64,000 nucleotides of DNA, from assembly GCA_002269645.1 (NCBI GenBank), contig NIVC01000570.1:124001-188000 (forward strand). Reading direction: 5' to 3'. Position 1 is the first letter of the stretch, and every line of letters starts with the position of its first letter. This DNA is from Macrostomum lignano (Eukaryota). A program made the translations under genes and the position numbers. The notes beneath the pieces are model-generated. The model worked only from the letters and a program-made list of their open reading frames with translations. It did no database searches and was not told where the DNA came from. Below are positions 4,245 through 31,589 of this stretch, piece after piece.

Positions 4245-6060
4245 TGGAAGCGTCATGTAAACAATCATACAACCGTCATGTAAACAATCATAGAAGCGTC
4301 ATGTAAAAATCATAGAAGCGTCATGTAAAAATCATAGAAGCGTCATGTAAAAATCATAGAAGCGTCATGTAAACAATCATAGAAGCGTCATGTTAAAATC
4401 ATAAAAGCGTCATGTAAAATCATAAAAGCGTCATAAAAAATCATAGAAGCGTCATGCAAACAATCATAAAAGCGTCATGTTAAAATCACACAAGCGTCAT
4501 GTAAACAATCATACAAGCGTCATGTAAACAATCATAGAAGCGTCATGTAAAAAATCATAGAAGCGTCATGTTAAAATCATAAAAGCGTCATAAAAAATCA
4601 TAGAAGCGTCATGTAAACAATCATACAAGCGTCATGTAAACAATCATAGAAGCGTCATGTAAACATCATAGAAGCGTCATGTAAAAATCATAGAAGCGTC
4701 ATGTAAAAATCATAGAAGCGTCATGTAAACAATCATAAAAGCGTCATGTAAACAATCATAGAAGCGTCATGTAAACAAAAATAGAAGCGTCATGTAAACA
4801 ATCATAGAAGCGTCATGTAAAAAATCATAGAAGCGTCATGTAAACAATCATAGAAGCGTCATGTAAAAATCATAGAAGCGTCATGAAAAAATCATAGAAG
4901 CGTCATGTAAAAATCATAGAAGCGTCATGTAAAAATCATAGAAGCGTCATGTAAACAATCATAGAAGCGTCATGTTAAAATCAAAGAAGCGTCATGTAAA
5001 CAATCATACAAGCGTCATGTAAACAATCATAGAAGCGTCATGTAAAAAATCATAGAAGCGTCATGTTAAAATCATAAAAGCGTCATAAAAAATCATAGAA
5101 GCGTCATGTAAACAATCATACAAGCGTCATGTAAACAATCATAGAAGCGTCATGTAAACAATCATAGAAGCGTCATGTAAAAATCATAGAAGCGTCATGT
5201 AAAAATCATAGAAGCGTCATGTAAACAATCATAAAAGCGTCATGTAAACAATCATAGAAGCGTCATGTAAACAAAAATAGAAGCGTCATGTAAACAATCA
5301 TAGAAGCGTCATGTAAAAAATCATAGAAGCGTCATGTAAACAATCATAGAAGCGTCATGTAAAAATCATAGAAGCGTCATGAAAAAATCATAGAAGCGTC
5401 ATGTAAAAATCATAGAAGCGTCATGTAAAAATCATAGAAGCGTCATGTAAACAATCATAGAAGCGTCATGTTAAAATCAAAGAAGCGTCATGTAAACAAT
5501 CATACAAGCGTCATGTAAACAATCATAGAAGCGTCATGTAAAAAATCATAGAAGCGTCATGTTAAAATCATAAAAGCGTCATAAAAAATCATAGAAGCGT
5601 CATGTAAACAATCATGGAAGCGTCATGTAAACAATCATAGAAGCGTCATGTAAAAATCATAGAAGCGTCATGTAAAAATCATAGAAGCGTCATGTAAACA
5701 ATCATAGAAGCGTCATGTTAAAATCAAAGAAGCGTCATGTAAACAATCATACAAGCGTCATGTAAACAATCATAGAAGCGTCATGTAAAAAATCATAGAA
5801 GCGTCATGTAAACAATCATACAAGCGTCATGTAAACAATCATAAAAGCGTCATGTAAACAATCATAAAAGCGTCATGTAAACAATCATAAAAGCGTCATG
5901 TAAACAAGCATAGAAGCGTCATGTTAACATAGAAGCGTCATGAAAAAATCACAGAAGCCTCATATAAAAACTAATGAAAGTGTGTCATTTAAAAAATTAA
6001 GAAGCATCATGGAAGAATAAAAGAAGCGTAACGTAAAAATCAAAAGAAGCGTCATGTCAG
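4245..6060. repeat. 22/23-bp minisatellite (ATCATAGAAGCGTCATGTAAACA)
   Basis: Direct tandem repetition that degenerates after ~5950. Confidence 0.97.
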
Positions 6061-6139
6061 ACATGAAACAAGTGTCATAAAAATTAAATGAAGCTATAGT
6101 GCTGTGCTGGGGAGAATCACTGAGACGTCAAGGCTCACA

Positions 6140-7070
6140 GAGAATAACTGAGATTACAGGGGGGTTTCTGAGATGTTAAAGCAAAAGTCAGAAGCTACTT
6201 CAAAGTACATGTACTTTACTTAAGTTTTTTTATTGCATTCTTTGTTAGCTTGCCACGGTGGGGGGGGCGCTGATAGAAAAAGAGTCATGTAAAAATAAAA
6301 GGAGCACTATGTATACATAAAATAAAAGTCATGTCAAAGTTAAAAGATTCATTTGGGAATTGCTACGATGTCAAAGCTTGGAGGGAATCGTTATAGTGCT
6401 GTGATTCTTAAAGAAGGAATCATTTAAATGCCAAGGCTTAGGGAAGAAGAATTGCTGTGATTTCAAGGCTTTAGGTTGGGTGAAAGTTAGGTTTACGTCA
6501 GGTTTGGGTTGAGGGTTAGATTTTAGCGCGTTTCAAGGTTAACAGGGGATTTTTTAGATTTCAAGGTTTATGGGGGCATCGCTGACATGTCAAGGCTTAC
6601 GAGGGGAATCTATCTATCTATCTATCTATAGCTGAGATGTCAAGGCTCACGGGGGAATAAATGAGATGTCAAGGCTAATGTCAGAAGCTACATGTAGTTT
6701 ATTGGAAAAAAGTTATTACATTATTTGTTGGCTCCTCACGGGAGGGATCGCTGATAGAAAAAGCGTAATGTAAAAAAAAGAAGCTTCATGTCGAAGTTAA
6801 GAGATTCATTTAGGAATCCCTACGATGTCGAGGCTTGCAGGGAATCGCTATAATGCTGTAGTAGTGCTATAATGACTCTTAGAGAGAATTACTGAAATTT
6901 CAATGCTTTAGGGTTAGGGTTAGGGTTAGGGTTAGGGTTAGGGTTAGAAAGTAGACAGATTTTTTAAGATTTCAAGGCTTATGGGAGCATCGCTGAGATG
7001 TCAAGGGGGGAGTTGATATTTTAAGGCTTGTGGGGAGGGATTGCTGACATGTCAAGGCTTACAAGGGTAC
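6140..7070. repeat. Diverged ~500-bp tandem duplication with GAGATGTCAAGGCT sub-motifs
   Basis: 6165-6600 aligns by eye with 6660-7060 (GTCAGAAGCTAC...CGCTGATAGAAAA...AGATTCATTT.GGAAT..CTACGATGTC). Confidence 0.7.
6908..6947 (+). repeat. Interstitial telomeric repeat (TTAGGG)6
   Basis: Six perfect TTAGGG units plus TTAG. Confidence 0.9.
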
Positions 7071-7969
7071 TGGTAGCGTACTGAAGCATACTGGTAGAAG
7101 TAGCTCTGAAAGAAGGCAAGTATGGTTGAATTTCAATGTCTGTTATAAAATTCTGCACAAACATGTTTTATTGGTACATAAGCCTGGAATTAAAATGAGA
7201 ATTCGATTCCTAGCCCCCTCCCTAAGAATTTTTTTTCACTTTAAAGGATTCGTCCCTTGCTTATTGGCCACCCCGAAGGGGGGCGCTAGATTGCTAGTAT
7301 GTTTCTATTTTTAGTTTGAAAGTGCCCATAATAAAAAACGAATAAAAGAAAAGAATACATTAAAAACTAGCCGATCATAACCGCGGCAAATTAAAGGGAA
7401 CAAAGTCTCGCGAAGGTGAATTTTTGCGTTCTTGCCCCCTAAATTCATGGCGGACAAGCAATTCATGGTTGTATGCATAGGTTCTACATACATGTATGAT
7501 ACATGCAGACAACAATTTTTTGTATTTAGCACAATTTTTTCTCTAAGTCTAGGACACTCTTTTCTCTGTAAAATAACATGGGTGTCAAGTCGCTCCCAGT
7601 AAACGATGACAAGGCTGCCCGTGGGCTTGGTTGAGTCAAGTGCGAAGTTGTATATTTGAGACGAGAGAAATATCGCAAAGATAGTGAGATACGAGGTGGT
7701 AGGTGGCGAGACCAATATATAGGCTTAAAAGACAAACAAGTGAGTGGGCTTAAAACTTAGAATCGATCACTACTGAATATTATCATGTCAAGGGAGAGAG
7801 AGAGAAAGTACACAGAGCAGCGTACACCGGGGTAGGCCGGTTTGGCTAGTTAGGCTAGTTGGCTAGTTAGAGTTATTACTCATTATTGAACTCAGGTGAG
7901 TCAGGTGCAGTGCAGTACATTAAAACACGCCCGGCACCTCAGACCATAGACATTCTTTCTGCTCAAACC

Positions 7970-8370
7970 GGGTCCATGAGAATTGCCCGCCGAGATTTGC
8001 CCGCAGTGCATTTTGCCCGCGAGTGAATTGCCCGCCGAGTTTTTTCCCCGCCGAGGTTTGCCCGCAATGTTTTTTCCTGCAGCGCATTTGGCAGCTAGAT
8101 TCTGTCTGCAATGCCCCCCCCCCAAAAAAAATGCATTTGATATGCAATTACTATCAAAACGTTTGATCGGGTAAATCTCTTTATCAAGACTTACTAAGCA
8201 TTGGGGAGGCAATGCAGACAAGATCTGCCGCGTGGCCAAATGCGCTGTAGGAAAAAAGCACTGCGGGCAAACCTCGGCGGGAAAAGACTCGGCGGGCAAA
8301 TCCCGATGGGCAAATCTCCTGCGCGCAAATCTCGGCGGGAAATTCGTCTGCGGGCATTTCTCGTGCTCCC
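7970..8370. mobile_element. MULE/Mutator-type foldback MITE
   Basis: Perfect 9-bp TSD GCTCAAACC (7961-7969 and 8371-8379). Termini GGGTCCATGAGAATTGCCCGC and, in reverse complement, GGGAGCACGAGAAATGCCCGC. Long inverted arms built of TTTGCCCGCCGAG subrepeats. Confidence 0.85.
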
Positions 8371-9826
8371 GCTCAAACCAATGCCTAATCATAGAACTCC
8401 TTTCGCAAGCTATCATTTTTTCTTCATAATAGGTGGTTAGGCCATAGACATCACGATAATCTTGCATGTCTCTCAGTCGAGTCTCTCAGTCAGACATTGG
8501 CGTGTTGTCTATGGCCCAACCCCTAGCTTTGTTATATACGAGCTTTCAACTCTGGACGTCCGAATTTTTTAACTTAGCATACGATCTATACCGGAGAACA
8601 CCGAATTGGTTTAAAATCTTGAACGAGTCCTCTACCAGTTGGCTGAGCTACATAATGTAAACTGCCTTCTGTGGCGGATTTCGTCTGAGCGCTCTATAGA
8701 TACTGAAGCCAATATATTAAACAAGTTCCTTTGGGAAATTTCTGGTTGGCTATAGCTGCTCCCTTGTGGATACATACCCAACCACACACAATCGGAGTGT
8801 GTAACATTTCGGCCCAGACCAACTCGCTGTAAGGCATGCATATCTGTATACTGCGATAACTGCGCCTTAGGGATCGACCCTCGATGGGCGCTCTCGATCG
8901 GGCCAAGCAGCAATTTTAGCTGCAATGCTAATGAATCTTGCAATATCCAGAATTTCTATGGTTTGCGGATACTTTTGATCTGTCATGCTCAAATTGACAG
9001 CACTAAAACGTCTCTGCATAACAATATTCTTGCGTTGTGTTTTGGTAGTGTTTAATTCTGCTGCGTCTCTTAGAAATCGCTGTTGAGTATGTAGTGCATG
9101 CGTCCTTGTCTGTTTGCAGGTCGCGATGCACTTTGGGGCTGGCTGGGGGGGAGGGGTTGGCGGGCGTAGCGGGGTCTGGCTGGCGGCCGGGCTTTGTGCG
9201 TGCCCCTCCCCCGCCATGCGCCCTGCCCCGTGCTCAGGGCTGGTTGGCTGCGGCCGGGCCGGCTTTACGCCCCCCCCCTAGGCGGGGTTTTGATTGGCTG
9301 GCAAGTGCGTCCAGTCTATTTGTTTGTTGTTGGTGTGCTCTATTTTTGCGGGCTTAGCCGGTAGGGCCGTCTGCTCCGCCCCCACCCTCAGGCCTGTAGT
9401 GGTATTTACCCGTATTAATTTGCGCCCGGGTTTTTTGACTGCCCCTTTTCGCTCTGGGTTTTTCCCGCTCACTTCGTACTGCGACATTGAGAAAAAAATG
9501 TTTAGGTAATAATAAATTTAGTTCTAACCACAAATACTAGAATAACTACACTCAACAACATCGAAAAGTCGCCATCACAGAAAATTCCGTCTGTGGTCGC
9601 CACTTTTGAGAGTGCAGGTAAAGTCTCTCAACCTTTGAGAGTGATGCAACTCAGCTACGCAACTCAGGACGGATTAAGGCTACCCCTCAGTTTTTTTGTA
9701 CCAGTTTTATTTCAGAATAGCCCAAGAGAAATTGCTCACTGGCGCATTGAGTGGCGACTTTTCAATTTTGCTAAGTATAGATGGGCCACTCAGGCATATA
9801 TAGCTCGTACTTAGTAAATCAGATTT

Positions 9827-10166
9827 CTACTTTCAGTTCAGTAGCAAAGAAGAATACATAAGCCATTTTATAAACATAACCGCAGCTGAAATGAATTTGA
9901 TAAGTTTAGAAGCCCAAGCTTGCAGGCGTAAATAACTGGCTAATTGGTTCAGCAATAATGTACATTAGCCAGTCCACTGAAATGTACATGGCAGCTTTAG
10001 GCTGGAATTCTGAGAAAGGCAATAAAAATTGGAGCGGGGCGGAGGTAGTGTGGAAAGGCGCGGTTGGAGGGTTTAAGCTGCATCGGGGTAAGAGCCAATA
10101 AACGAGCCTTGGCTTTAAAAATACATTAAAATGTTTCAGTTTAACTTGCTACTGAACTGAAAGTAG
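9827..10166. mobile_element. MITE with 21-bp perfect inverted repeats; diverged relatives at ~47420-47670 and ~33690-33750
   Basis: CTACTTTCAGTTCAGTAGCAA at 9827-9847 with its reverse complement at 10146-10166. The internal AATGTACAT...CATGGCAGCTTTAGGCTGG...GGCAATAAAAAT...GAGCCAATAAACG is shared with 47420-47670. Confidence 0.7.
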
Positions 10167-11196
10167 CTTGCACGGAAACGTGCTGAGTGGTCCATAGTTA
10201 TTCTAGTATCTGTGGTTCTAACAAAGTTTCAAGTTGTACGACACCGCAAATGAATCGACAACGACCCAGAAGGGCAAGAGCAAGCCAGAAGCTAGCTTAA
10301 ACGCGCATCTGATAACCCGGCCACCGGTTCAGTCTTTTCTGGGAAGCTTGTTAGGCTGCAGGGAGTTCTCACCAGAGCGTCATAACGCCGGGAGAGCGGA
10401 CCCTATATATACCATACTTTACTTCTATTATACTGTACTAATGTACGCTCGTATAAGCACCAGAGAGTGTCACAACACCTCTGGGAGCAACGCTAGTTCT
10501 GTGCGTCATCACGCCAGAACGAGCAATTTCGTACTCAGAGCGTCATCACGCCTGTGAGTAGCAGTATCACATTGGCAGAGCGTCACAACGCCTGCAGGTA
10601 CAACCGTACTTGGGCTGGGCACCCGAATCGACCCCGATTGCTACAAATTCAACGTTCAACATTCTAGATCCCACTACAACTTTATTGGAACGAGCATGCA
10701 TAGATTTACTATCGCAGGGCCTGCATGCTTATTCACAGCTGTTTCCTATTCACTGCCCAGCCCCAACCGGTAGAAATTCTAAATTAAGAAGCCCAAATTC
10801 TGAGTAATTAACCAGTCCCCAAACGGTAGGCAGACGATGGAATACGTTGCCGAATTGGAATTGACATTTCGGTCGAAGTTCTTATATTCAAACAAGAATA
10901 AGGATGGCCTTTCGACGCCTTATTCGCTAATTGCATGCTGAAAAAGGCATAGCGCGAGCTAGGCTTAATGCCTAATACAAAGTGTTCCAGATCCAGCGCA
11001 GTGAAAGTTTCTCCGACAGCCAATGGAATCGGCTCTCCAAATTGTGTCAGAATTTTCATATCAAACGCGAAAACCAATCCCCGCCCGCTGAGTATTTCCT
11101 CGCTTTCCTTTCTCGATGCTTTCTCGATGCTTACATTCTCCGACCGGACACTCGGCGTAGCGTCAATCAATCAAGCTTTCGGCCACTGGTGGCGAT

Positions 11197-14100
11197 ATGG
11201 ACACAGATGCAGTGCCGAACTCCTCCAGTCAGCAGAGCCCGACTTTGCGGCGACGCATCGCACTTCGCTCTCAGCTGGTGGCTCTGCTGTCCCGCTCTAC
11301 AGTGCACGGCATATCGCATTCAGCCAGCTCGTCCAACCGCTACGAGCAGGTTTTCTGGCTGATCCTGGTAGTGCTCGGAGTCACTTCCTTTGTCGGCAAT
11401 CTGATCTCCGTTGTGCAGCGCTACAACCAGTTCCCTGTGCTCACGGCCTACTACTCAAATGAGGAAAACTTCACTTGGCCAGACATCACGTTCTGCGATA
11501 ACTCGCCAATCTCGCTAGATAATGATACCGCGTTTGAGCAGTTCCGCAACTTCACCAACTGGTTGAGCTCTGATACTCGAGTGCAAAATCTGAGCAGCCT
11601 GATGGACAAATTTCACAACAATTCGCTTTTAAATGAAGCCCTTAACGTCCTGGTGCGGTCCATCACCCTGTCTACCATCGACAGTCACGTTTTCCAGGCC
11701 GATGAGGTGCGGAGAGTGATCTCCAACTTGGCGTTCTGCCAACAGAAAGAATTGATTCAGACTGAGATAAACATGGACTCCATGTGCGAAATATTTGAGG
11801 ACTATGCTCCGTACTTTCACAGCAACAGCATCTCGCTGCGTTACCGTTGCGCCTGTTACACTCTCAAGCTGAACGACTTTATCTTCAAGAAGAATGTCAA
11901 CGCCATTGAGTCGCTTCAGTTCTTCCTCAGGGGCAACCATTTAACCTACGTGCGCTTTAACTCTTCCAATTATCAATTCGGCGGCCGGGTTTACATTCAC
12001 CTGCCAAATACTCTGCCAGAGGAAGGTGAAATGATTGAAACGCCGCCCGGAGTGACAACCACAATCCTGCTCGACCAGAAGAGACGCCGGCTCATACCGC
12101 AGAAGAGCGACTGCCGAGAGACAGAGAAAACGGCATATATATACGACTACGACTTGCGCCTCGCCAGGCCGTACAACCTCAGCTACTTTCACTGCCATCA
12201 GCTGCTGTCGCAGCGGTTATTCTACGAGAATTGCCGCTGCTTCAATCCGCACCTGATTGTGCCTAAGTTGGACGACAGGCCGCCTGTGCTCTGCTTCAAC
12301 CTGAGCGTCTACGGACTCGAGCAGTTGGCGGAAAACTTGGAATGCTTGGACAAGACTGCGGTGCGCTATAGAGACGAGTGAGCTCTGGTTTTTTGAGTTT
12401 TCAACAAGCGTAACAACTGAATGGTTTCTGAATTATAATAGTTTTTTTCATCGAGTAAGATTTTTTGGGTTGGTGAAAATTTGAGTTGGTAAAGTTTCGG
12501 GTTGGTGATATGAGTGAGGTGTGGTTTCGGGTTGGTAAAGTTTCGATTTGGTGAAGTTTTGAGTCGGCAAAAGTTTAGATTGATGAAGTTGAATGACAGG
12601 AAAATCCACTGCATCCAAAGCTACTTGCATAGAGAGTGCAGAGTGCAGAGGGAGCTTTGCTTATTGAGCAACGAACGACACATTCGTAGTAGACTTATGG
12701 TATACAATGCAATGACCAAGTTCTGAAGAGGTATCCGCCTTAATGAGTGTTGGACAAAATCTAGATTAGAATCGAAGCCCTAGTCAGCCCAGTAACCCCA
12801 CAGATTTTGGCGACACTAACAATAAAGAGAGGGAACAGAAAGTTCTGGAGGACGATAATCAGGACAAGGACTGGGGCCAGAGTCAACTCTGTCTGCTCCG
12901 AATGCCCCTCTCTAACGGCAGAGGAAGAATTATAATTATGCCAAACAGCAGTGAAACAAGCTGGAATGCGCCGCGGAATAGACAGGACTCGCTCAGAGGC
13001 GTGTTCTCAATACTCAACCACTGCACAGTCGACCTGGATTGACTATTCACTGCCGGAGTTGCAGACTGAATGTTTAATTGGGAGTTCTGCTTTTTTCTCT
13101 CTTTGAAAATAAAAGTTGAGCACGCAGGCCTCAAGGACCCCAACATTACGTTTTGCGCATGAGCAAACTGCGATTTTTAATCGAATATGGGCGGGCATTG
13201 CGTGAGCCGCTGCTCTGCTGAGAAAGAGAAGAGCACTCCTTCCGATCAAAATCCTAATCATGCAGAAATGGCACCGCACATCCGAGCAAACATTTCCCAC
13301 TCTCCCGTCCAGTTTGGCTTCCAAGGCAACTCGATATGCCCGAGCGCAATTATCTTTGACAGGACCCGGCCTCGGAAAGTATTCCGAGGATAATTTAGAA
13401 GGCTACTGGGACTGGAGGAAGAGAAGGAGAGAGCTGGGATCCTTAGCCCCTCACCCTCAGGCGAGTAGTAGTAGTAGTGCCCTCGCTGCGGGTTTTGAGT
13501 GACAGGCGGCTATGCTAGGACACGCCTCCGCTAGGACAGGGTGACACTTTGATATGCTGGGATCAGGGGCGAACAAGGCGAAGAGCAGAGTGGAAGAGCA
13601 TTAGCGGGGAGGAGCCGCCTGGATCAGAGAAAATGAACAGTTTTGAGCATCAGAGCTCAGATCTAACTCGGCCAATTCAATGTCCAATAATTCTAGTAGG
13701 CCTTCGGACTGCGTTGGATTGTCGCGATCGAATTAGTCGGATGAAATGACGGGATAATCTGTTGATGCAAATTTAGTGACATACGAGCGTGAAGCACTTG
13801 ATTTGGATATAATGAAATTGTGATGCGCTGGTTAAAGTAATACATGTGGTATTTTTTCATGTGGTCTGCCTTAGTATCTTAGTGTCTTAGTGTCCTAGTG
13901 TCCAGATGTCTTAGTGTCCTAGTGCCCTAGTGCCCTAGTGTCTTAGTGATAGGAAAGTGGCCCCCTCCACTAAGTTAAACATAGAAAAACACATTGCACT
14001 AATAACTGTCTTTTGTGAGGGCATTATATCCTTGCGTCGCTGCATACTTACCTATGCAAATAAAAGCACCATTTGCTTTTTGGTCGAGTGTATTATCAGC

Positions 14101-17100
14101 TTACTAGCAGGAAAAGTTTGCTGTGAAGATAGCTTGAAACGGAGACTCAGGCGATATCGAAATAATCTCCGGCTTGTTGCACAAAGCAAAAGTGTGAAAG
14201 AGGCTCGGCGCAATCTCTCACACCCGCATATCCTTCGTTGTCTTCCTCTGATTCTCACCTGTATAAAAAGACATGTACAAGGAAATGATGCTGGTGCCCC
14301 GGTTGCAGTATGAGGCACTTGTGAATCAGAGGGGCATGGAGACATGGAGTCTGTGAACCCGAGCTAGAGGCGGAAAACAGTTGCGCAGGATTAGGGACGA
14401 GCGTTGTGTGCAGCAGCTGCAAGCAAGTTCGACCCAAGAACAGTCTCCAGTAATTCACAAAGAACCGCAGTGGAAGGTGTTATATCTGACGGTGAATCAG
14501 AAATGGCATCATCGCCTGCAGGCATTGATTAGCTTCATAACCGTAAAGTGCAAGTCGATTAGCATAGATGATACATATGAAGTTTCTGTCAATGGTAAAC
14601 CGTTGTACAACTCAAAGATCGTGGACCTGCTGCATTTCATAGTTAAAGATACGTACTCTAAGTACCTTCAGCCACCGAATGGGATTAATGAGTTTGTTAC
14701 GTGTCTTCAAGAAAATCAGGTACCTCTGTCTGCTGCTGATTTGAATATGAAAAAATTGCTGGAAAAGCCTCGGGAAGAAAAGTATAGTCCTAAAAAACAT
14801 CGACTGCATATAATAAGATTCAGTCTCAGAAAGGATACGGCAAGTGGATCAAGTGGCCAAGATGATTGTCATTGATTTTGAAGGATTTCCGCACCTCTAC
14901 AAAACAGAGGACTTTTGTGATTAAGGAAATTGCGTGGGTTGAGTTTGCATGTGGTCAAACGACGGCTCATTACTATTGCTACCAGCCGCCGCACAGTTTT
15001 GAGCTCTTTGATCGAGGACAGCGACGAACCTGCTACTGGCTCACCAATAAGCGGCACGGTCTAGACTGGGACAGGAGTGGGTTCCGACCCTACTCTTGTC
15101 TCTTGAGCGATATCTCTCACTTGCAAGGCTCGATATTCAGCAAAGGGGATGTCAAGTGCCAGTTCCTGTCGCGTCTGCTGCTACAGCCTGTCTACGACCT
15201 AGCACACCTGGCCTTTCCGAGTGCCTCAAAGTACGTGCTACCCTGCGCCCTGGCCAAGGTGGCGCTGTACGCTGATTGGCTGCGGCCTCGCGGCTACGGG
15301 TCTATAAAAGTAGCGATCTGCAGCAGGCACTGGCGTTTCTCTCGATTGTCTAAAGATGGTCGCAACAATTCGCGTGACAAACATCGTGACAGGAGCCGAT
15401 CTGGCGACCTGGGTGGGTCTGCCACAACTAGCGAATTTCCTGACTCTTCATCTGCCTCAGTATCACACAATCCATCTCTGTTTCATCCTCGAACACTGGC
15501 AGTGGTGATGAAGAGCGGGCAGCATCGAGTAACCGCGCTGGTGTATCCGACCGGACAAGTGTCTGTCTGTGGAGCCAAAAGCATGGAGGAGGCTCTTGCA
15601 GAGACGGAGAAGATTGTGAAGCTGTGTGCGGACTTCTTGCGATTGACCAGTCTGCCCTAGATTCGCATCAAAACTATTACCTCTGTGACGGCCTTTCCCG
15701 CGGGTCGGCATCCACTCCGGTTGGGGGAAGTCAAGTCACTCACCCAGACACTCAGCTGCCCGATCCCTCATCTGGCCTGCTCGACCGGCCTGCCCGACCC
15801 CACCCTTGGCCTGCTCGACCCCTACCTCCGGCCTGCCCCGCCCCGCCTCCGGGACCTCCTCATCGCTGATTGACTCCCCCTCGCTGATTGACCAGCCATT
15901 AATTGGTATGGGATGCACGAGGTGCTGGACAGGAACGGGCCTTGGTATGGGATGGGGTGCAGGACAGGAGGGGGCCGGTTTGGGGTCGGGGTGGATGCGT
16001 GGCGGTTGTGGGTTTGGTGTCGGGGTGGGCGTCTTTGGGGGCCCGGTTTGGGGTCGGGGGTGGGTGCGTGGCGGTGGTGGGTTAGGGGTCGGGGTGGGCG
16101 TCTTTGGGGGCCCGGTTTGGGGTCGGGGGTGGGTGCGTGGCGGTGGTGGGTTAGGGGTCGGGGTGGGCGTCTTTGGGGGCCCGGTTTGGGGTCGGGGGTG
16201 GGTGCGTGGCGGTTGTGGGTTTGGTGTCGGGGTGGGCGTCTTTGGGGGCCCGGTTTGGGGTCGGGGTGGATGCGTGGCGGTTGTGGGTTTGGTGTCGGGG
16301 TGGGCGTCTTTGGGGGCCCGGTTTGGGGTCGGGGTGGGTGCGTGGCGGTGGTGGGTTAGGGGTCGGGGTGGGCGTCTTTGGGGGGGGGGCGTCTCCCCTC
16401 ATTGGCCAGGTGCCCCTGCCAATCCCGTGCGATGGCGGTGGAGGGGACCACTTTCCTACTACTTGTCTTAGTGTCCTAGTGCCCTAGTGCCCTAGTGTCT
16501 TAGTGTCTTAGTGTCCTAGTGTCCTAGTGCCCTTGTGCCCTAGTGCCCTTGTGCCCTAGTGCCTTAGCGCCTACCCAGCCACTCGAGATCATTGCCAGCT
16601 GCCCAAACAGCAATTCGCTGCCTTCTTTCAGGTCGCAGTTCCGCGGGCTGCTGCGCAAAGAGTGCGCCGATCTGCGCAGAAAGCGCTGCGACTCGCTGTC
16701 CTGGGAGCCGGAGAAGCAGCGCGAGCTCTACAGAGAGATGTGGGCGGAGACCGCCAACCCGGCCCGGCTGGCCTTCATCAGGGCCGCTCTGAGTGACATT
16801 GAGTAAGCTGGTTTCCACTGAACCTTGAGCTTTACGGTATTCTTTGTAATGTAGACAGGAAGTATCAAGTATTACGAGCGTACTCTACAGGGGTTACGGA
16901 GACGTTGAACCGGTTTATGAATGCTTTATAACAAGAACAGCAATACCACCACTAACAAAAATAACGACAGCAACAACACTAATAATAAAAATCGTAACAA
17001 CAACGGAAACAGCATTAACAGCAACAATAATAATAGTAATAATAGCCAAAAAAGCAGCAACGGCTACAAAAGCAACAACAAGAACAACCAAAACAACACC

Positions 17101-20100
17101 CCTGTGATTTTCTCCTAGCCTCTTGGGCAACCGGTAGGCCCAATCCTTTGTCTTTGTAGTGGGGGGGGGAGAGGCGACGTCTCTTTTGGGGCGGCGAAGA
17201 GCGCCGTGAATCGGACACCGTCCCTGATTCAGATGCGGTGTGTGGCTCAGTCTAGCCCTCGGTATTCGGCTCTCTCTGTTGATGACGGGGGATTGACGCT
17301 GGGTTCAGATAGTCTGAGCCAAAGCTGCAGTCAACAACAGCAACAACGACCACAACGCAAAAAAATAATAATGACACATACAACAACAACAACAACAACA
17401 GTTCACGCAGACCAGTGTGCTGCCGAAGCCCGTCCCAACGCGCGCACGACCACCAGTGGTCTTTATCTTCTATGTCACCGCAGTCCTCGCAAACGCCTTC
17501 TGCTTCCAGACCAATCTTCTGCCTCCAGTACTTAGTGAGTCTGCAGTGACCAGACCTGAGCTGGGCTAAGATGGAAGCAACTTTCCTGCCACATTCCGCG
17601 CGTTCAATCACACCACCGTACACCGAGCGCAGACGGGGGTCATTTATGCAGGGCCTCCACCGGTGCTTCAGGTGTCTGCGTAACGCCTCAAACTCAACGG
17701 CCGTCTGCCCTTGGGGCAAGAGCGCTGCCTGCTTTGCCGAGGATCTGCGCGAGGAGAACATGGTGATAAGGTTCTTGAGGGTGGCCCACCCGCAGTGGAT
17801 CACCTGAGAGCTCCGGTCCGAGGCACACACACACACAACAACAACAACAACAACAACCTTGCTGATAGGGCTCACGCAGCGCCAGCAGGGAAACTATTTA
17901 CTGCTTCAGTAAGCTTGATAGACGCGTTTTCCCAATGTTACTATGGCTTGAACAATAATGCGTTCTAGTTTCTCTTGGCAAAATTTTAGTATCCATACCA
18001 TATAATACTGTGAAGTATCGGCGGCCCCTCCAATGTAAAATAAAGCGGATGCAACAGGGGCGACCAGGAGAGACTGTGTCGGTGCCCCGACGGTGATGGA
18101 AGATCCTATAATTATGGCTAATGAAATTTCTTCTCCCGGGTTGTGCGGAATCCCAGCTCCAGGGGATTCATCCCGGATTCAATTATAGCCCCGACCCCTG
18201 CCAGCACTTTCTATTTGTGAAAGAAGAAAAATAGACGGTGCGTTAAAGCAGAGCGCAGATGGAGCGGAAGGAAGTGAAGGAGTGAAAAATGAGAGTGAAG
18301 CTCTTGGGGGAATCTTAGCGGGATATTTTGCTGCTTTCTGTCACTGGGTAGTGAGAAATCACACGTACTGCGGTCCGGGAGGGATTTTGTAGGGAGACAT
18401 GTTTTAATGTATGAGCTCTGATCGATGGCTACTCTGGTGAGTCAGTCAGGAGTTCATATATCTCTGCGCTGGGATGGGAATGAGAATGAGGATGAGGATG
18501 AGGGTGAGGATAAGGATAAGGATGGGGATGGGGATGAAGATGGGGATGAGAATCAGAATGAGAATCAGAATGAGAATAGGGACGAGGATGAGGCTGAGGA
18601 TGGGAAAGAGAGTGAGTATTACGTCGAGGATTAGGATAGGGATGCAATGAGACGGAGGTAATTGATTGGAGGGAGAATCAGCGCTTTAATAGTAACTAAT
18701 ATGGAATCCTAGTGGTTGCAGAAGCCCCAAGTTGACAGACGCGGACACTATATGGTATTCCCTGGCACTTCGAATTTATTAACTGCATTTCCTAGAAACG
18801 CCGGCCTCAGAGCCGAAGCCTCATAGAAATTTTCGCAACGTATCCCATTTCCAGGCATCCCTAGAGTGGGGATAATCCTCCCCTCACTCCCGATAGAGCG
18901 GGTGAGGGCGGGGGTTGAAGCAAAAATTCCTTATGCGAAGTAAGTGACGGGTGTTAAGGCCTTGTCAAAGCAAGCAGTTCGCCGAGGTGTCAGTCAAGCG
19001 GAAAAAACACAGAGAAAGAACTGAGTGTTAGCACAGAGAGCCCGGCATATACTTGAATTCTTCGCCGTATTTAGTCCCTTTCCCGGTTTTAGTCGGACTT
19101 GTTGTTATTCTGATTTGATTAAGCCCTCAATCAGGCAAATGGGCGAGTGTGGCATCTGCATCGGCAACTCTATACTTGCGATGTGGATTGAATGTGAACT
19201 GGACTGGATCAGCTGAACAAGCAGCCTGAGTGCATGCGAGTCCATAGACAAAATTTGGCATTAGCGCATTTGTCTGTAGACACTTGCATGTTTGTTGGAC
19301 AATGTACTCTTAATTATTTAACCCTGTAAGGTTATATCTTCATCTAATAAAACAAATACATGTAATTGAAGGGCAGACAGCCAGCACAGACAAACGAATA
19401 TAAAAAGCGCCATAGCTTAGCGTTGAAGTTCGAAAAAAGGTAACAACCCGAATTTATGCTTGCTACTTGTAGGCTACAAAAATATAAAAACTATCCCCAG
19501 TAACCTCTAGTTAAAAATTCCTTAACTGCTACACACATCGAGACTTTATTTGCAACCCTGAAGTTCAGAAGAAGAGACTAGAAATCTGAAATTTGCAGTG
19601 TTGGGCAAAGTTCCGGCGCTTCCGGCACATTTAGTACCGGAAGTTACTTTTGTTAAAGCGGCACGTTTTTCCGGTTCTTTTTTTAGAATGCCGGACTTGG
19701 GAAACGGAAGTTACTTTTTGATAAGTCCGGTTCTCCGGTACTTGAAAATGAAATTTTAGGTGCCAAACAGCCAATTTAGCACTAAATATTTCCCAAAAGC
19801 GCAAAAATTTCACCAAAATACTCAAAGTACAATTATAAAAAGGTAAAAAGAGGTGATCCTAGATAATATGGTTTTTACTTTTTAAGTTAAAGCACGTTTT
19901 AAGCATCATAGAATCATAGAATGAAGTAATTATTATGGGTAGGCTGCCTGGGTTGAAACGCGATTGAAACGCTCTACATTTGTCCGCCGTCACTGTCTAT
20001 GGTTGAAGCATATTTCAATTATATTCAATTCATCACTTATAGCCACTGTATATTTCACTGCCAACAAACACAAGACCAAACACAACAGGAATGAAACACG

Positions 20101-23082
20101 AAGTAAACGAAATAATTCAGTAAATAACGCTTGGAAGCTCAAAATGAAATGTGGCTGGAGAGTTCATCAATAGTTACCTCAATTCGCACGTTCCTTGTCT
20201 CCAGCACGTACCGATGAATAGACGCCCTGAAGCACACCAGACTTCGGACAGCGTATGGCTTGCCTTCCTGAGTCCTCAGTGACACAAACCACAGCCGCAT
20301 ATAGGCACAAAGATTGCGGATCGGCATTGTTTCGATGTTGTCCGGCAGTTTCTGGTCCACCAGATATTTTTTGAAGCGCTTCACATGGAGAGCGGTTTGA
20401 TCCGTGGTCGATTTGCGTTTGGCAGCCTCTTCGACGTCTTGCACAGCAGCTTCCTCTTGTTCCGTCAGTTCCCGCAGAAGCTCGGCATTATTCAGAATGC
20501 TTGGATTGGACAATTCTGCGTCAATCAACTCCTGCTGTCTTACGGTCACACCGGTCCACTGACTAACTTCTTCACCAGGATCACGATGTCCAAGTTGCTG
20601 CAGAAACTCAATCTCATTCATTTCTAAACCGCTAATATCTTCCTCTAGTATTGCTTTTGTCAGCCTAACTGAGAATAAAGCCACCCAAAATGAGAATCCT
20701 GCCTACGCTGACTGCGAAGGGCCTGGCTGCGTGCAGCCTTAGTCTATGGGCCATAGACAATAAAGGACAAGCAAAGTGATAAAAAGCCATCCAATGTGAG
20801 AATCGATTGGTCTATGCGTCGTATTCTTTTATTTTTATACCTTCTGAGCCATATGACTAGCCAATAGCTTGAACGGAATAACGGAAACAGGAACACACTG
20901 GATGATACAGTACAGTAAAGTAAAGAGTTAAAATAGCCGTCCCTCAATGCACTGCCCAAAGAGTCGTCTGCAATGCAGGTCCCACGTGGCAGCCTTCCCA
21001 GCAGTGACTGTGTCGCCAATCGCTTCGCGCGCCTCCCTCTCTAACAGCATGAATCGCCACTCCTCTTGGTCGATTCTCACATTGGATGGCTTTTTATCAC
21101 TTTGCTTATCCTTTATAGTCTATGGCCCATAGACTAAGGCTGCACGCAGCCAGGCCCTTCGCAGTCAGCGTAGGCAGGATTCTCACTTTGGATGGCTTTA
21201 TTCTCAGTTAGGCTGACAAAACCTATATTGATTCCCAGTGAAACATGGCTAATTCCGAACCTTGAGGCTGTTTAAATCATATTTTCTCTCCCACCCACGA
21301 AGAGAAGAATGCTTCAAACTCTATTTGGGTTTCAACCATAGACAGTCTCCGCGGACTGCGAAACCGCCACGAAGCATATAGCTAAAGCTTTTTCAACCAT
21401 AGACAGTTTCTGTGGACGTGAAACCGCGTTGTGCGTCCGCGCTTCAGCCTACCCATAACACTAATATGTACGCGCCTCGGCGTTTCAGTTCATTTCAGTC
21501 CTCAACAGCCAGTCTATTTAATATATTGGTAGGATCACTAGCAGTACATCAGGACGCTACATTCGTAATTCGTGAAAAAAAATTTTTGAAGGCCGATTTC
21601 TTCATATCGATGTTCGTGCAGGACGACACGAGTGATGCATTCTAAGAGTGTTTTGACCTTTAACTCTTTTGAGGCTAATTACAATTTTGCAATTGCAACG
21701 CAGAAGCACTAAACCAAGTTACTTTAAGTCTTGTGCATTGATCCGTCTATCAAATTCCACCTATCTATTTGTTGTCCTGGCATATTTTTTCTTAATTGTC
21801 AACTGGTATTTCCAAGGCTGCAAGAGGATTATCATTGATTCTAAATGAGTCAGCAGTGTGCAAAAGTATACTTAAACTACGCTACTGTAAAAGTATAGCT
21901 GCTGTACAACTACAGGAATTATTCGTAGTAGGGCGACGAGAATGACCCACACAAAATAAAAGTCTCCTGAAGTATTCTAATCATTGACACACCTATTGGA
22001 CAAAGATTATCTCTATACATACTTCTGAAGAGTCAGAACCAATATCTGAAAATCGGCCTTCAAATTTTTTCTGCGAATCGTGAGTGTAGCGATGTACTTA
22101 CTGCTAATCCTTGTTTTGTAAAAGGTGTTGCTTATTCACTTAAATTTTGGATGCGATAATAAAAAAAATACAATGTACCATCTTTATTTGAGAAATAAAA
22201 GCATGTTTAACTCCAGACCAACACATTTTTTTGCTTTTTTCACAGACATGATTAAGCACTTTTTAATTGGCGGTTCTTTAAAAGAGTTACTTAACCAGAA
22301 GACTGATTCCTCAACACTGGAAATTTTTCAGAAACTTTTCAGCGATTTTGTTTATTTTTGGGCAATAGGAATTTACATGCAGGCAGTCAAATCCTTAGAT
22401 TTTATTAGGGGCCGCTATTTCACCATTAAAAGGGTTCAGTCTGCGCCAATGTACAATTGCACCATCGCGTGTATTCACCCGCATACCCACTCTCTCATCG
22501 GACAGCCCGACCAAAAGCAGCGAGAACATGAGCATGGCCAGCGTGCTGCGCCAAGTCCGCCTAGAGATCAGTAACCTCATCCTGGTGGCCGCCAAGGACA
22601 AAGGCGACATGATTGTTGAGGAGCCCGAATTCCCAGCCTCCCAGCTGCTCTCCGACATCGGTGGCCTGATGGGACTGTACCTGGGAGTCTCCGTGATTGG
22701 ACTGTGCGAATTTCTAGCAGTTCTGGTCCTGCTAGGCAAGACTGCCACGGTGTCCTGCTGTCCGCCGCGCTGGTGGCAGCAGAACGAAGATTCGGCGACG
22801 GCGGCGCCGATGAAGGTGCATCAGAATGGACGAACGTCGCGCTGGAGACCCAGAAGCGCCGGCCAGCCGGATTTCTCCTACCGATGCCCGAGCCGTCGAC
22901 CTAAACGACAGCAGCCGCAGCCGCAGCAGCAGGTGGAGCTGAAACATCAGCGGCAGCAGCCGCAACAGCAGAGTCTGGAGCCTGGGCTGCTGTCGATCAC
23001 GCGATCAAAGACTCTCTACTCAAGTGACGATTTCTTCTACGACAGAGTCGCTACGGGAACGGATACTGGCGGAGCCAGCTGA
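11197..23082 (+). CDS. DEG/ENaC (amiloride-sensitive Na+ channel/ASIC superfamily) subunit, 3 exons, ~642 aa
   Basis: Exons 11197-12377, 16632-16802 and 22506-23082; all junctions GT-AG and phase 2 (GA|GTGAG, TTTCAG|G, GA|GTAAG, GACAG|C); total 1929 nt. Motifs: pre-TM1 STVHG, TM1 VFWLILVV...YNQFPV, WPDITFCDNSP, Cys-rich thumb CRCFNP, TM2 LLSDIGGLMGLYLGVSVIGLCEF with a G-x-S filter. Confidence 0.92.
13872..13944. repeat. 9-bp minisatellite (TAGTGYCYT), left half; continues at 16464-16565 after the inserted element
   Basis: Same unit in the same orientation on both sides of 13945-16463. Confidence 0.9.
13981..14313 (+). pseudogene. Polinton-type small basic ORF (start probably mutated ATG>ATA)
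   Basis: ILTYANKSTICFLVECIISLLAGKV...LKRRLRRYRNNLRLVAQSKSVKEARRNL matches my recollection of the small basic Polinton/adintovirus ORF pattern (A....I..lCEC..N.L.G.V...k.kL.kyk..LR.la). Confidence 0.6.
14273..14865 (+). pseudogene. Polinton-type conserved hypothetical ORF (one in-frame stop, one frameshift)
   Basis: MYKEMMLVPRLQYEAL (TGA at ~14354) ... EVSVNGKPLYNSKIVDLLHFIV...PPNGINEFVTCLQENQVP. A -1 shift at the A6 run 14792-14797 gives ...QSQKGYGKWIKWPR* with TGA at 14863-14865. TATAAAA at 14262-14268. Confidence 0.65.
14862..15310 (+). pseudogene. DEDD/DnaQ-like exonuclease-fold protein of the type common in Polinton/viral gene blocks
   Basis: ATG 14862 gives MIVIDFEGF; a +1 shift at TTT-CCG (14886-14891) continues RTSTKQRTFVIKEIAW...PP...WLTNKRHGLDW..G..Y...IFSKG..K..FL...VYDL...P...CALAKV..WL. 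The Exo I-like DxE motif is split from the body by the frameshift. Confidence 0.65.
15356..15745 (+). pseudogene. TATA-binding protein (TBP)-like gene, truncated in repeat 2
   Basis: ATG 15356 gives MVATIRVTNIVTGADLATWVGLPQLANFL (cf. TBP [20 protein letters not shown]). A -1 shift at ~15466-15469 gives NPSLF...AVVMKSGQHRVTALVYPTGQVSVCGAKSMEEALAETEKIV (cf. YNPKRFAAVIMR...[20 protein letters not shown]). After TAG 15658-15660 the same frame gives IRIKTITSVTAFPAGRHPLRL (cf. FKIQNMVGSCDVKFPIRL). TATAAAA at 15303-15309. Confidence 0.75.
15978..16392. repeat. ~69-bp G-rich subterminal tandem array inside the mini-Polinton
   Basis: About six copies of GGGGTGGGCGTCTTTGGGGGCCCGGTTTGGGGTCGGGGGTGGGTGCGTGGCGGTGGTGGGTTAGGGGTC. 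Confidence 0.9.
16925..17095. repeat. AAC/AAT low-complexity tract
   Basis: Degenerate trinucleotide repeats. Confidence 0.8.
17401..17823 (-). mobile_element. Truncated non-LTR retrotransposon (LINE) ORF2 C-terminal fragment
   Basis: ILAQLRSGHCRLTKYWRQKIGLEAEGVCEDCGDIEDKDHWWSC is a post-RT CCHC zinc knuckle. Both flanks carry CACA(CAA)n. Confidence 0.75.
18470..18640. repeat. Degenerate hexamer repeat (GAGGAT/GAGAAT/GGGGAT)
   Basis: Low-complexity tandem hexamers. Confidence 0.75.
20178..20621 (-). pseudogene. Crypton-like / DUF3504-family tyrosine-recombinase N-terminal (core-binding) fragment
   Basis: KRKSTTDQTALHVKRFKKYL...IETMPIRNLCAYMRLWFVSLRTQEGKPYAVRSLVCFRASIHRYV resembles the N-terminal helical domain of Crypton/KCTD1/QRICH1/ZMYM proteins. 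It ends at a donor GAG|GTAACT; no catalytic domain seen. Antisense within ENaC intron 2. Confidence 0.65.
20653..21225. mobile_element. Non-autonomous element with ~155-bp subterminal inverted repeats, copy 1
   Basis: TTTTGTCAGCCTAACTGAGAATAAAGCC... is inverted at 21065-21221. Asymmetric ends (GC left, CCTA right), flanked by TATT direct repeats (20649-20652 and 21226-21229). Confidence 0.8.
21540..22108. mobile_element. Old MITE with imperfect ~70-bp inverted ends
   Basis: TAGCAGTACATC...GCTACA...AAAAAATTTTTGAAGGCCGATTT against AAATCGGCCTTCAAATTTTTT...TGTAGCGATGTACTTACTGCTA. Confidence 0.55.
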
Positions 23083-30079: not shown

Positions 30080-31589
30080 ATGGCAACCTCGTCAACTGGC
30101 GATTCCGACGCGGAAGTCGGCGATGACAACACCCTGGTGTCCGCGTCCGAACTGCAGATGCTGCACGAGACGTTCCAACTGTTTGATAAGGACGGTGAGT
30201 ACACATACGAGCCATAGTAGGTTTGGTTGACTTGAGAATGGAACTGCACTAGCGAGCCCCAACCTCGAACAGAACGCATACTTGCTTCATTAGCAATGCA
30301 AAGTTCAGAAGTTGAGACGTTGCCATTTTAGTGCTACAAAACTGGAAACTTCCTGCTAATGCATTTTGCATATTCTAATTTATTTATCCATGATGGAGTA
30401 CCAATCTAAACTTTGTGATCTTCTCACTGATCTTAGGCGATGGCTGCATCACAACAGAGGAGCTGGGCATCGTGCTGCGTTGCATCGGACAATCGCCTAG
30501 TGCAGGCCAGTTGAAGGTGAGAGCATCCGCCACTTCGATACGATCGTACATCATTAAAAATCCAATCAGGGAACTATGGCTTTCTCGGTTCATCCTTGCC
30601 ACCCCATCACTCCATAGCGGATTATTGATCACACCCCCTCACTCCCAGTGTCAGTCGCTGATTGGCTGCTATATCTATCTCACCGTGCCCCACCTCACAC
30701 CAACACCAGCTAGTCCCTGATTGGCTGAAACTTCCAAATCAGCAGATTCTTTATTCTCTAGATGAGCGACCATGCATGTAGAATCAGTGCGTAAAGTTGC
30801 AGTTGCTCTAAAATTCAACGTTTAAATTCAGCCGATTGCTGTAACAGTGGCTTATCTGTCTCGTAGAGTATAGCTGCTAAGATCTACGTTCCAATCAAGG
30901 ACGACTTAAGACAACTGTAGAACAAATGCAGAATAGCATCAGATGCAATGATAATGATCATATTCGCATGAGAGGGCTTTGGGCATCCTAGAGCAACGCC
31001 TTCAACGAGCGACATCGTCCCACAGCCAGCACTGAGGCAATTCTGCCCATTCGGCTGACTCCTGAGCACATTCAAGTCTGTCTAATCGTAAGGCATGTAC
31101 ACCCTCTGTGCCTTGTGGGTTGGCCCTCATGAAAGTGGCGCGACAACAGGAATTTGAGCATTGAAAAAAAATTTCGTCAATTAATCCTGAACCCCCAACA
31201 AAAAGGAGATGCTGCACCGCATCGACAAAGACGGCAACGGCACCATCGAGCTGGAGGAGTTCATCGAGCTGATGAAGTCCGAGAAGCGGCTGGCCGCCGA
31301 CTCGCCAACCGACGAGTCCGACAACGTCGGCGAGGAGGACGAACTGATGGCCACGTTTCGGGTATTCGACAAGGACAAGAACGGTTTCATATCGGCTTCC
31401 GAGCTCAAGCACGTGCTCATGGGACTCGGGCACGAGTGCGACGACAACGACGTTGAAGAGATGCTCAAGGAGGTCGACGTCAACGGGGACGGCCAGGTTG
31501 ACTACGCCGAGTTCACCGCCATGCTCAACAATCCAGTGCCGTCGCCGACGCATTCGCAGTTCAGCAGCATCGCCGACGATCCATCCTGA
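30080..31589 (+). CDS. Calmodulin-like protein with four EF-hands, 3 exons, ~192 aa
   Basis: Exons 30080-30194, 30437-30516 and 31206-31589 (GT-AG, frame consistent). Loops DKDGDGCITTEE, DKDGNGTIELEE, DKDKNGFISASE and DVNGDGQVDYAE. Confidence 0.92.

Follow-up and report, generated by a model that had tools for sequence, protein, structure and literature searches.

A degraded 2.5-kb Polinton copy in the genome of Macrostomum lignano and the TATA-binding protein-like gene of its parent family

We analyzed a 64,000-nucleotide stretch of the Macrostomum lignano genome (referred to as the window; assembly GCA_002269645.1, contig NIVC01000570.1, positions 124,001 to 188,000 of the forward strand), in which a 2.5-kb element at 13945 to 16463 had been described in an earlier note as a mini-Polinton with intact ends. 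Contigs of the assembly are designated by C-numbers (C570, C753, C114, etc.), with C570 being the contig that carries the window copy. This copy is very probably the dead remnant, at a single site, of a Polinton family of about 14 kb, and was likely deleted after a longer copy had inserted. It consists of (i) 26 bp of the left arm; (ii) a stretch of parent interior equivalent to positions 10163 to 11941 of the 14316-bp copy on C114; and (iii) a terminal arm of 727 bp. As such, it is a fossil of a familiar type, which the description of a mobile mini-Polinton with intact ends overstates, and in itself it is ordinary. The interest lies in the parent, where a gene for a TATA-binding protein (TBP), a PC4-like gene and a short upstream motif were found in two distant Polinton families.

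The parent internal block extends over 13965 to 15737 (+ strand), from the end of the ATPase region to the middle of the TBP gene, and is 94-96% identical to 24 near-full matches elsewhere in the genome. It is joined to the arms at a 3-nt microhomology (5/6) on the left and at 1 nt on the right. Four gene remnants were located in the block, all on the + strand: (i) open reading frame (ORF) 1 at 13981 to 14313, a 110-aa basic protein in the parent, which has lost its start codon and upstream motif; (ii) ORF2 at 14273 to 14865, 198 aa in the parent, with frameshifts near 14343, 14373 and 14808; (iii) ORF3 at 14862 to 15660, predicted to resemble a DEDDh-fold nuclease, with a frameshift near 14912; and (iv) the TBP-like gene at 15356 to 15737, which has a frameshift near 15476 and is cut at about codon 128 of 199 with the loss of most of the second repeat. 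The TBP assignment is provided by a Pfam match within 14866 to 15657 (E 5.6e-7), and it agrees, as does the fold predicted for ORF3, with the TBP-like and DEDD-like identities proposed earlier. The four co-oriented ORFs reported at the outset are thus co-oriented gene remnants, and all four are broken. Both TATAAAA boxes thought to precede two of the ORFs are present, with that at 15303 to 15309 (+ strand) lying 53 nt 5′ of the TBP start and being retained in parent copies; the box at 14262 precedes the start of ORF2 by just 11 nt, which is too near for a TATA box at −30. The polymerase and integrase are absent, and none of the core Polinton genes is present in the window copy. A kept accessory module, as the earlier note had it, is not what the block represents, since it is a contiguous piece of parent interior severed through TBP; the Polinton origin and the status of deletion derivative proposed in that note are upheld. 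Compared with the parent copy on C254, seven indels were counted, four of which must be real decay, as had been proposed, because they are also present in the homologous copy on C753; the other three are private to C570 and could be assembly errors. These private indels and the richness of the window in repeats would suit an assembly artefact in which repeat pieces were joined, but C753, a second contig diverged by 2.6%, has both junctions and the same target site duplication (TSD), and such an artefact is extremely improbable. No holder of the window-copy sequence is on record as RNA. When contigs of four runs were aligned to the window, family-type sequence was found to diverge at 13968 and 15737, and no piece among the matches listed spans either junction, a result that is uninformative on expression or absence.

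The ends of the window copy were examined in relation to the target site. Its inverted arms, at 13945 to 13970 (+ strand) and 16438 to 16463, are 26 nt long and complementary at 23 of 26 positions (88%), as had been noted before, and form the best inverted pair within 12500 to 18000; terminal arm matches of this kind numbered two in the window versus none in 100 shuffles. The left end begins with AGTGAT instead of AGTAGT, and the right end finishes with ACTACT, so that only the right half of the AGTAGT...ACTACT terminus first described stands; both outer ends retain AG at the start and CT at the finish. The right terminal arm (15737 to 16463, − strand) is a B-type repeat cut on its inner side, and contains a 69-bp GC-rich tandem array at 15970 to 16384. 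True terminal repeats of the family measure 0.4 to 1.1 kb. The ends are therefore not intact: the left arm is reduced to 26 bp with an altered AGTAGT motif, and the two intact termini of a mobile mini-element are wanting. Copies of TGTCTT were found on both sides, at 13939 to 13944 within an 8-bp minisatellite and at 16464 to 16469 (both + strand). That TGTCTT reflects only the phase of the minisatellite is countered by two observations, which also indicate that the TSD is real: (i) the minisatellite phase is restored once the element and one TGTCTT are taken out; and (ii) a perfect 6-bp duplication flanks the element in 23 of the 27 end-pairs examined in the family.

The sister copies and full-length parent that the earlier note proposed to seek were found in the genome. 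A query of the 1.8-kb interior gave 49 matches, of which 25 span almost the full query length with 94-100% identity, and a 16-mer of the terminus occurred 64 times (control, 0). Outside the window and C753, the interior match begins at query base 21, and the surrounding DNA contains an ATPase gene on the upstream side and, on the downstream side, the remainder of TBP. This family (family 1) is present at about 30 places. Among the 27 end-pairs cut out, a few of which share flanks and are copies of one site, one further pair has the duplication with one mismatch and three have none. The longest insert-free copies are 14.3 kb, with terminal repeats of about 1 kb. Two arm types were distinguished; in most copies the B type is the arm on the left, and the older copy on C13 has it at both ends. 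The gene content includes a polymerase (1236-aa ORF on C254; DNA_pol_B_2, E 5.6e-12), an integrase (rve, E 1.7e-13; weak Chromo, E 0.024), an ATPase (AAA_22, E 8e-5) and a protease (Peptidase_C48, E 0.015), the last two under the Pfam cut-off and in the expected order, as well as a PC4-like gene (E 5.6e-5) just under this cut-off. Two ORFs of 260 and ~420 aa occupy the capsid positions where expected and are conserved in family 2, described below; neither has a Pfam match. [quoted passage not shown] The C254 element also contains, at about 5780 to 10800, a 5-kb insert with ORFs of 549 and 187 aa that is probably another transposon.

The distribution and divergence of copies were used to reconstruct the history of the 2.5-kb form. 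Its altered left end, AGTGATAGG, was found twice in the genome, on C570 and C753, and both junctions occurred only at these two among 165 loci examined; genome searches scored the best candidates only, so further mini copies may exist and the counts are lower bounds. The C753 flanks are colinear with those of C570 over ~10 kb, and the two loci are 96.7-98.2% identical in the element and 96.9-99.1% in the flanks. Since the flanks are colinear and have diverged much as the element has, the insertion predates the split of C570 and C753. This pair lies 3.4-4.6% from the other 24 copies and forms the deepest branch under midpoint rooting; the other 24 are as near as 0.3% to one another. By these comparisons the window copy is one old insertion, because both junctions are restricted to two contigs that share a colinear flank; this lower-bound search found the 2.5-kb form at no second, independent target site. 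Deletion in place is the simplest history. The element integrase would have inserted a longer copy with B-type arms, creating the 6-bp duplication. End-joining at short microhomologies would then have removed the left ~10 kb, with the polymerase, integrase, capsids, protease, ATPase and nearly the whole left arm, and likewise the stretch from the middle of TBP to the right arm, with the remnant decaying neutrally thereafter. Two points weigh against this history. The order of insertion and deletion is not proven, as no empty site is in the assembly (both of two flank matches are filled) and a single insertion of an already deleted copy would look identical; and the family does spread deleted forms, with one polymerase-less junction at 15 target sites. 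Two other routes were discarded. Descent from the inverted copy on C1277, whose break is ~20 bp from the left junction, was ruled out by its distance of 0.3-0.4% from young copies versus 3.85% from the window copy. A copy-back event is not needed to explain the B-type right arm, as C13 has B arms at both ends, although inverted duplications of that sort do occur, on C1016 and C592.

The spread of deleted forms is best seen in a chimera of ~11 kb, the commonest form of the family, which joins a B-type left arm and a truncated sister polymerase to an A-type body and right arm. Its junction, at ~5140 of the parent body, removes the polymerase and was shared by 17 of 28 rows examined; these rows have 15 different left-flank hexamers, and three more loci have the same join (contigs include C738, C176, C255, C494, C1184, C2485, C4138, C5126 and others). 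The arms of the chimera are alike only in the outer ~370 bp. We infer that the chimera spread without a polymerase of its own and mostly with unlike left and right arms, and, because the TSDs are independent, that it did so in trans; for the ~11-kb form the sequences provide good evidence of this. The 2.5-kb form could be a satellite that was generated extrachromosomally in the course of replication and integrated a single time through the integrase of a helper copy. Its outer AG...CT ends and clean TSD, the mobilization of polymerase-less forms in trans at 15 target sites, and a further deletion common to C460 and C1131, whose flanks differ, all speak for such an origin. Against it, (i) only one insertion was found, with both junctions restricted to C570 and C753; (ii) the 26-bp left end lacks the AGTAGT repeat that is present at 64 termini and is expected to serve jumping-back in protein-primed replication (PMC8097293); and (iii) the break runs through TBP, leaving no whole module. 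The compact satellite of the earlier note, integrated in trans by a helper, is on this balance improbable, and deletion in place is preferred. Other rearranged loci were also observed. The older, decayed copy on C13 (C13:144987-154815) has the sister (B) polymerase, B arms at both ends that enclose a related block and a perfect TSD; it lacks the capsid module. In support of deletion in place, other family loci have internal deletions, inversions or terminal stumps of 54-69 bp, and the first bases are mutated at three other family ends. Long inverted duplications or inversions (C592:149057-159651, C1016:331990-336311, C862:327172-340125 and C1277:51537-63464) are reminiscent of the snap-back/copy-back defective genomes of protein-primed viruses, to which they may be likened. 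Of the lone stumps (C3:403014, C236:500656, C2213:40156 and C84:306379), three have a flank in common and continue into a short tandem repeat.

The TBP-like gene, truncated in the window, is a complete ORF of 198-201 aa in 15 of 28 family 1 elements. The parent protein matches Pfam TBP in two stretches, corresponding to two repeats (E 5.7e-18), and its model, with a predicted local distance difference test (pLDDT) score of 88.4, is matched by Foldseek to TBP at E ~1e-13 and superimposes on yeast, human and archaeal TBP with template modeling (TM) scores of ~0.7; it is thus predicted to have the two-repeat TBP saddle fold. The gene was also found in a second Polinton family (family 2) of 16-17 kb with AGTAGTA ends and the polymerase on the opposite strand, whose proteins are 25-60% identical to those of family 1. 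The gene order ATPase, ORF1, ORF2, DEDD, TBP is the same in both, and PC4 is also present in family 2. Ratios of nonsynonymous to synonymous substitution rates (dN/dS) over the whole TBP gene were 0.19-0.37 in six of seven pairs, which are not mutually independent, and 0.04-0.31 for the integrase, showing at the level of coding sequence that the element TBP is under purifying selection. In a quick tree of 39 rows, the TBPs of both families clustered with six database proteins and apart from host TBP, with a Shimodaira-Hasegawa approximate likelihood ratio test (SH-aLRT) value of 98; the 31 database rows were hand-picked from 152 matches, and long branches weaken the grouping. The element TBPs are 25-29% identical to host TBP. 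Retained are the first Asn, the E-P-E stirrup and both C-terminal Phe; changed are the first Phe (to Leu/Trp), the second Phe (to Tyr) and the second Asn (to Thr), such that three of the four aromatic wedge positions are still aromatic. We take the four wedge phenylalanines and two asparagines to be DNA-facing, and E-P-E to be the stirrup for TFIIB. When the genome was searched with the Pfam TBP profile, 330 candidates were obtained, of which the best 150 were scored, with two matches per gene. Well over a hundred intronless TBP-like matches were obtained, and all ten loci inspected outside the two host genes encode Polinton-type TBPs, which are a trap for the annotation of TBP paralogues. The host genes, TBP (C70/C713/C1301) and a TRF2-like gene (C350/C3090/C3513), are intronless over the core, and each is found on three contigs at the same score; many loci are represented in the assembly by several homologous copies. 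In addition, the DEDD frame of the parent continues without a stop into the TBP gene, through its first half, for 330-390 nt at the same +1 offset in both families, and TBP dS is 0.33-0.51 in this overlap versus 1.5-2.4 outside. The overlap is possibly a dual-coding stretch, or a product of recombination. A metagenome scan with the TBP alignment gave 291 pattern matches and no confirmed one, and none of 13 viral contigs with distant TBP matches had other Polinton genes.

The regions 5′ of the parent genes were inspected for a sequence that this protein may recognize. In both families a motif, [AT]TAAGAA, was found 35 to 118 nt upstream of the integrase, putative minor capsid, putative major capsid, ATPase, ORF1, DEDD or TBP starts. 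By hand count in three elements, 17 of 26 hits fell within 120 nt upstream of a gene start (5/7 in C114, 6/8 in C114b and 6/11 in C130), an interval that in sum covers ~4% of both strands, and 25 of the 26 hits have the same orientation as these genes. More canonical TATA boxes precede PC4 in both families, as well as the TBP gene of family 1. We tentatively propose that the TBP-fold protein reads the family-wide TAAGAA motif and so switches on the capsid and packaging genes. PC4 and the family 1 TBP would be expressed from their more canonical TATA boxes in an early step driven by host TBP, after which the divergent element TBP, helped by the element PC4, would read [AT]TAAGAA before the integrase, capsid and packaging genes; late genes would thus come on only after the early step. 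It is conceivable, if somewhat on the doubtful side, that these elements represent an animal Polinton lineage with a promoter-recognition kit of its own (TBP, [AT]TAAGAA and PC4). A number of points weigh against the mechanism: (i) the motif was picked after inspecting upstream regions and counted by hand only, without an all-hexamer control; (ii) two of the three elements counted belong to one family; (iii) several hits are inside upstream coding sequence; (iv) protease and ORF2 starts are mostly without the motif; (v) host TBP itself may read TATAAGAA; and (vi) TBP dN/dS is 0.63 for the pair of C114 and the decayed C13. The parent TBP could instead act as a decoy, sequestering TFIIB or other initiation factors of the host and lowering host or antiviral transcription, with host TBP reading the element promoters. 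The C-terminal E-P-E-x-F stirrup is (near-)invariant while the positions presumed to face DNA differ from host TBP, as a decoy might require; the altered DNA face, however, coincides with a non-canonical motif in both families, and the wedge remains aromatic at three of four positions. We view the decoy as unlikely. TATAAAA, TATAAGAA and CTTAAGAA are candidate binding sequences for the element TBP or host TBP.

The remaining proteins of the block were compared by profile and structure. The comparison that the earlier note had suggested recognized the folds of TBP and ORF3, and gave no Pfam family for ORF1 or ORF2 and no PDB match for ORF2, which also has no usable Atlas match and seven unnamed relatives. 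In vertebrate Mavericks, pm and pz follow the ATPase (PMC8097293), and by gene order alone we infer that ORF1 is pm and ORF2 pz. No Pfam match and no PDB sequence match were found for ORF3. Its model (pLDDT 71.6) aligned with structures at Z 11.0 to 9.1, led by the DinG exonuclease domain (Z 11.0; root mean square deviation 3.3, 133 aligned), Pol III epsilon (10.7) and Maelstrom (10.1), and is predicted to have a DEDDh/RNase H-like fold; an Atlas match to Maelstrom (0.88) is a lead only. Of the acidic residues, the first Asp is invariant, the second position is Glu or Gln and later ones are not evident, with conserved His/Cys instead. Among viral models, ORF3 is nearest to ichnovirus ORFs and to a protein, itself unnamed, of Drosophila-associated adintovirus 2, and because an adintovirus protein is among them, ORF3 is a known, unnamed gene of the group.

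The parent was also compared with known systems. It resembles the Polintons/Mavericks (adintoviruses) of animals in its (AGT)2//(ACT)2 ends, 6-bp TSD and mostly degraded copies (PMC8097293, PMC10748475, PMC8502044), with 96% of vertebrate Maverick loci being degraded (PMC8097293), and in having protein-primed polymerase B (pPolB), integrase-chromodomain, ATPase and protease genes, two capsid-position ORFs and two ORFs in the pm/pz positions. It differs in adding TBP and PC4-like genes, which are not among the conserved genes listed in the available portions of these three papers, whereas the window copy differs in having no core gene. MELD viruses carry a TBP label (Starrett et al. 2021, Fig. 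5 legend; PMC8502044), so that a TBP-like gene has been recorded before for a polinton-related element. The label occurs in a section on non-animal datasets, and the available text gives no fold, selection or promoter analysis, whereas the TBP described here is stably carried by two distant integrated families. Beta- and gammaherpesviruses encode a viral TBP mimic (ORF24/BcRF1/UL87) and have a TATT box ~30 bp before the start of late promoters (PMC6541308). The likeness is a virus-encoded TBP-like protein combined with a modified TATA box before structural genes; the difference is that the herpesvirus mimic belongs to a six-subunit complex and binds RNA polymerase II (Pol II) directly, whereas the Polinton protein, as predicted from sequence, is a bare TBP core of 190-200 aa. 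By analogy, the Polinton TBP and motif would work like the herpesvirus viral-TBP/TATT system without being a member of it, and homology is not claimed. The TBP-like proteins of giant DNA viruses, matched in BFVD, likewise combine a divergent two-repeat TBP fold with a DNA virus. Giant DNA viruses bring their own RNA polymerase, whereas the Polinton element, which encodes none, would depend on host Pol II. The literature search turned up no study that dealt with a Polinton TBP or the [AT]TAAGAA motif, with subscription journals and Repbase being outside the search and other papers represented in part.

The window copy is likely intronic to a host gene for a DEG/ENaC (amiloride-sensitive) channel at 11161 to 23082 (+ strand), as judged from Pfam ASC matches at 11161 to 12378 and 22399 to 23079 and a probable exon at 16632 to 16802 (by eye, AG/GT borders). 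This placement raises the alternative that the host retained the block as a useful gene or regulatory element in the channel-gene intron, and both homologous copies of the locus do contain the block. However, none of the four genes is intact, and the two copies differ in their additional deletions and frameshifts and have diverged at the pace of the left flank; we give almost no credence to host retention. Several family insertions are in micro- or minisatellites (C291, C254, C1277, C592 and the window). Elsewhere in the DEG/ENaC introns, ORF fragments at 17252 to 17893 and 20139 to 20702 (both − strand) resemble, by eye and with no telling Pfam match, retroelement and Crypton-like transposon remnants. 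A calmodulin-like EF-hand ORF was found at 31191 to 31589 (+ strand; EF-hand_1, E 9e-26).

Overall, the presence at 15 sites of a chimera without polymerase provides direct evidence, at the genomic level, for in-trans complementation between Polintons. The small TBP and short candidate motif make the switching-on of animal Polinton virion genes open to test by binding assay and reporter. If the proposed mechanism is true, the viral-TBP strategy of herpesviruses would be present in an integrating element of 14-17 kb, and polymerase-less chimeras and their helpers could trade functions in trans.

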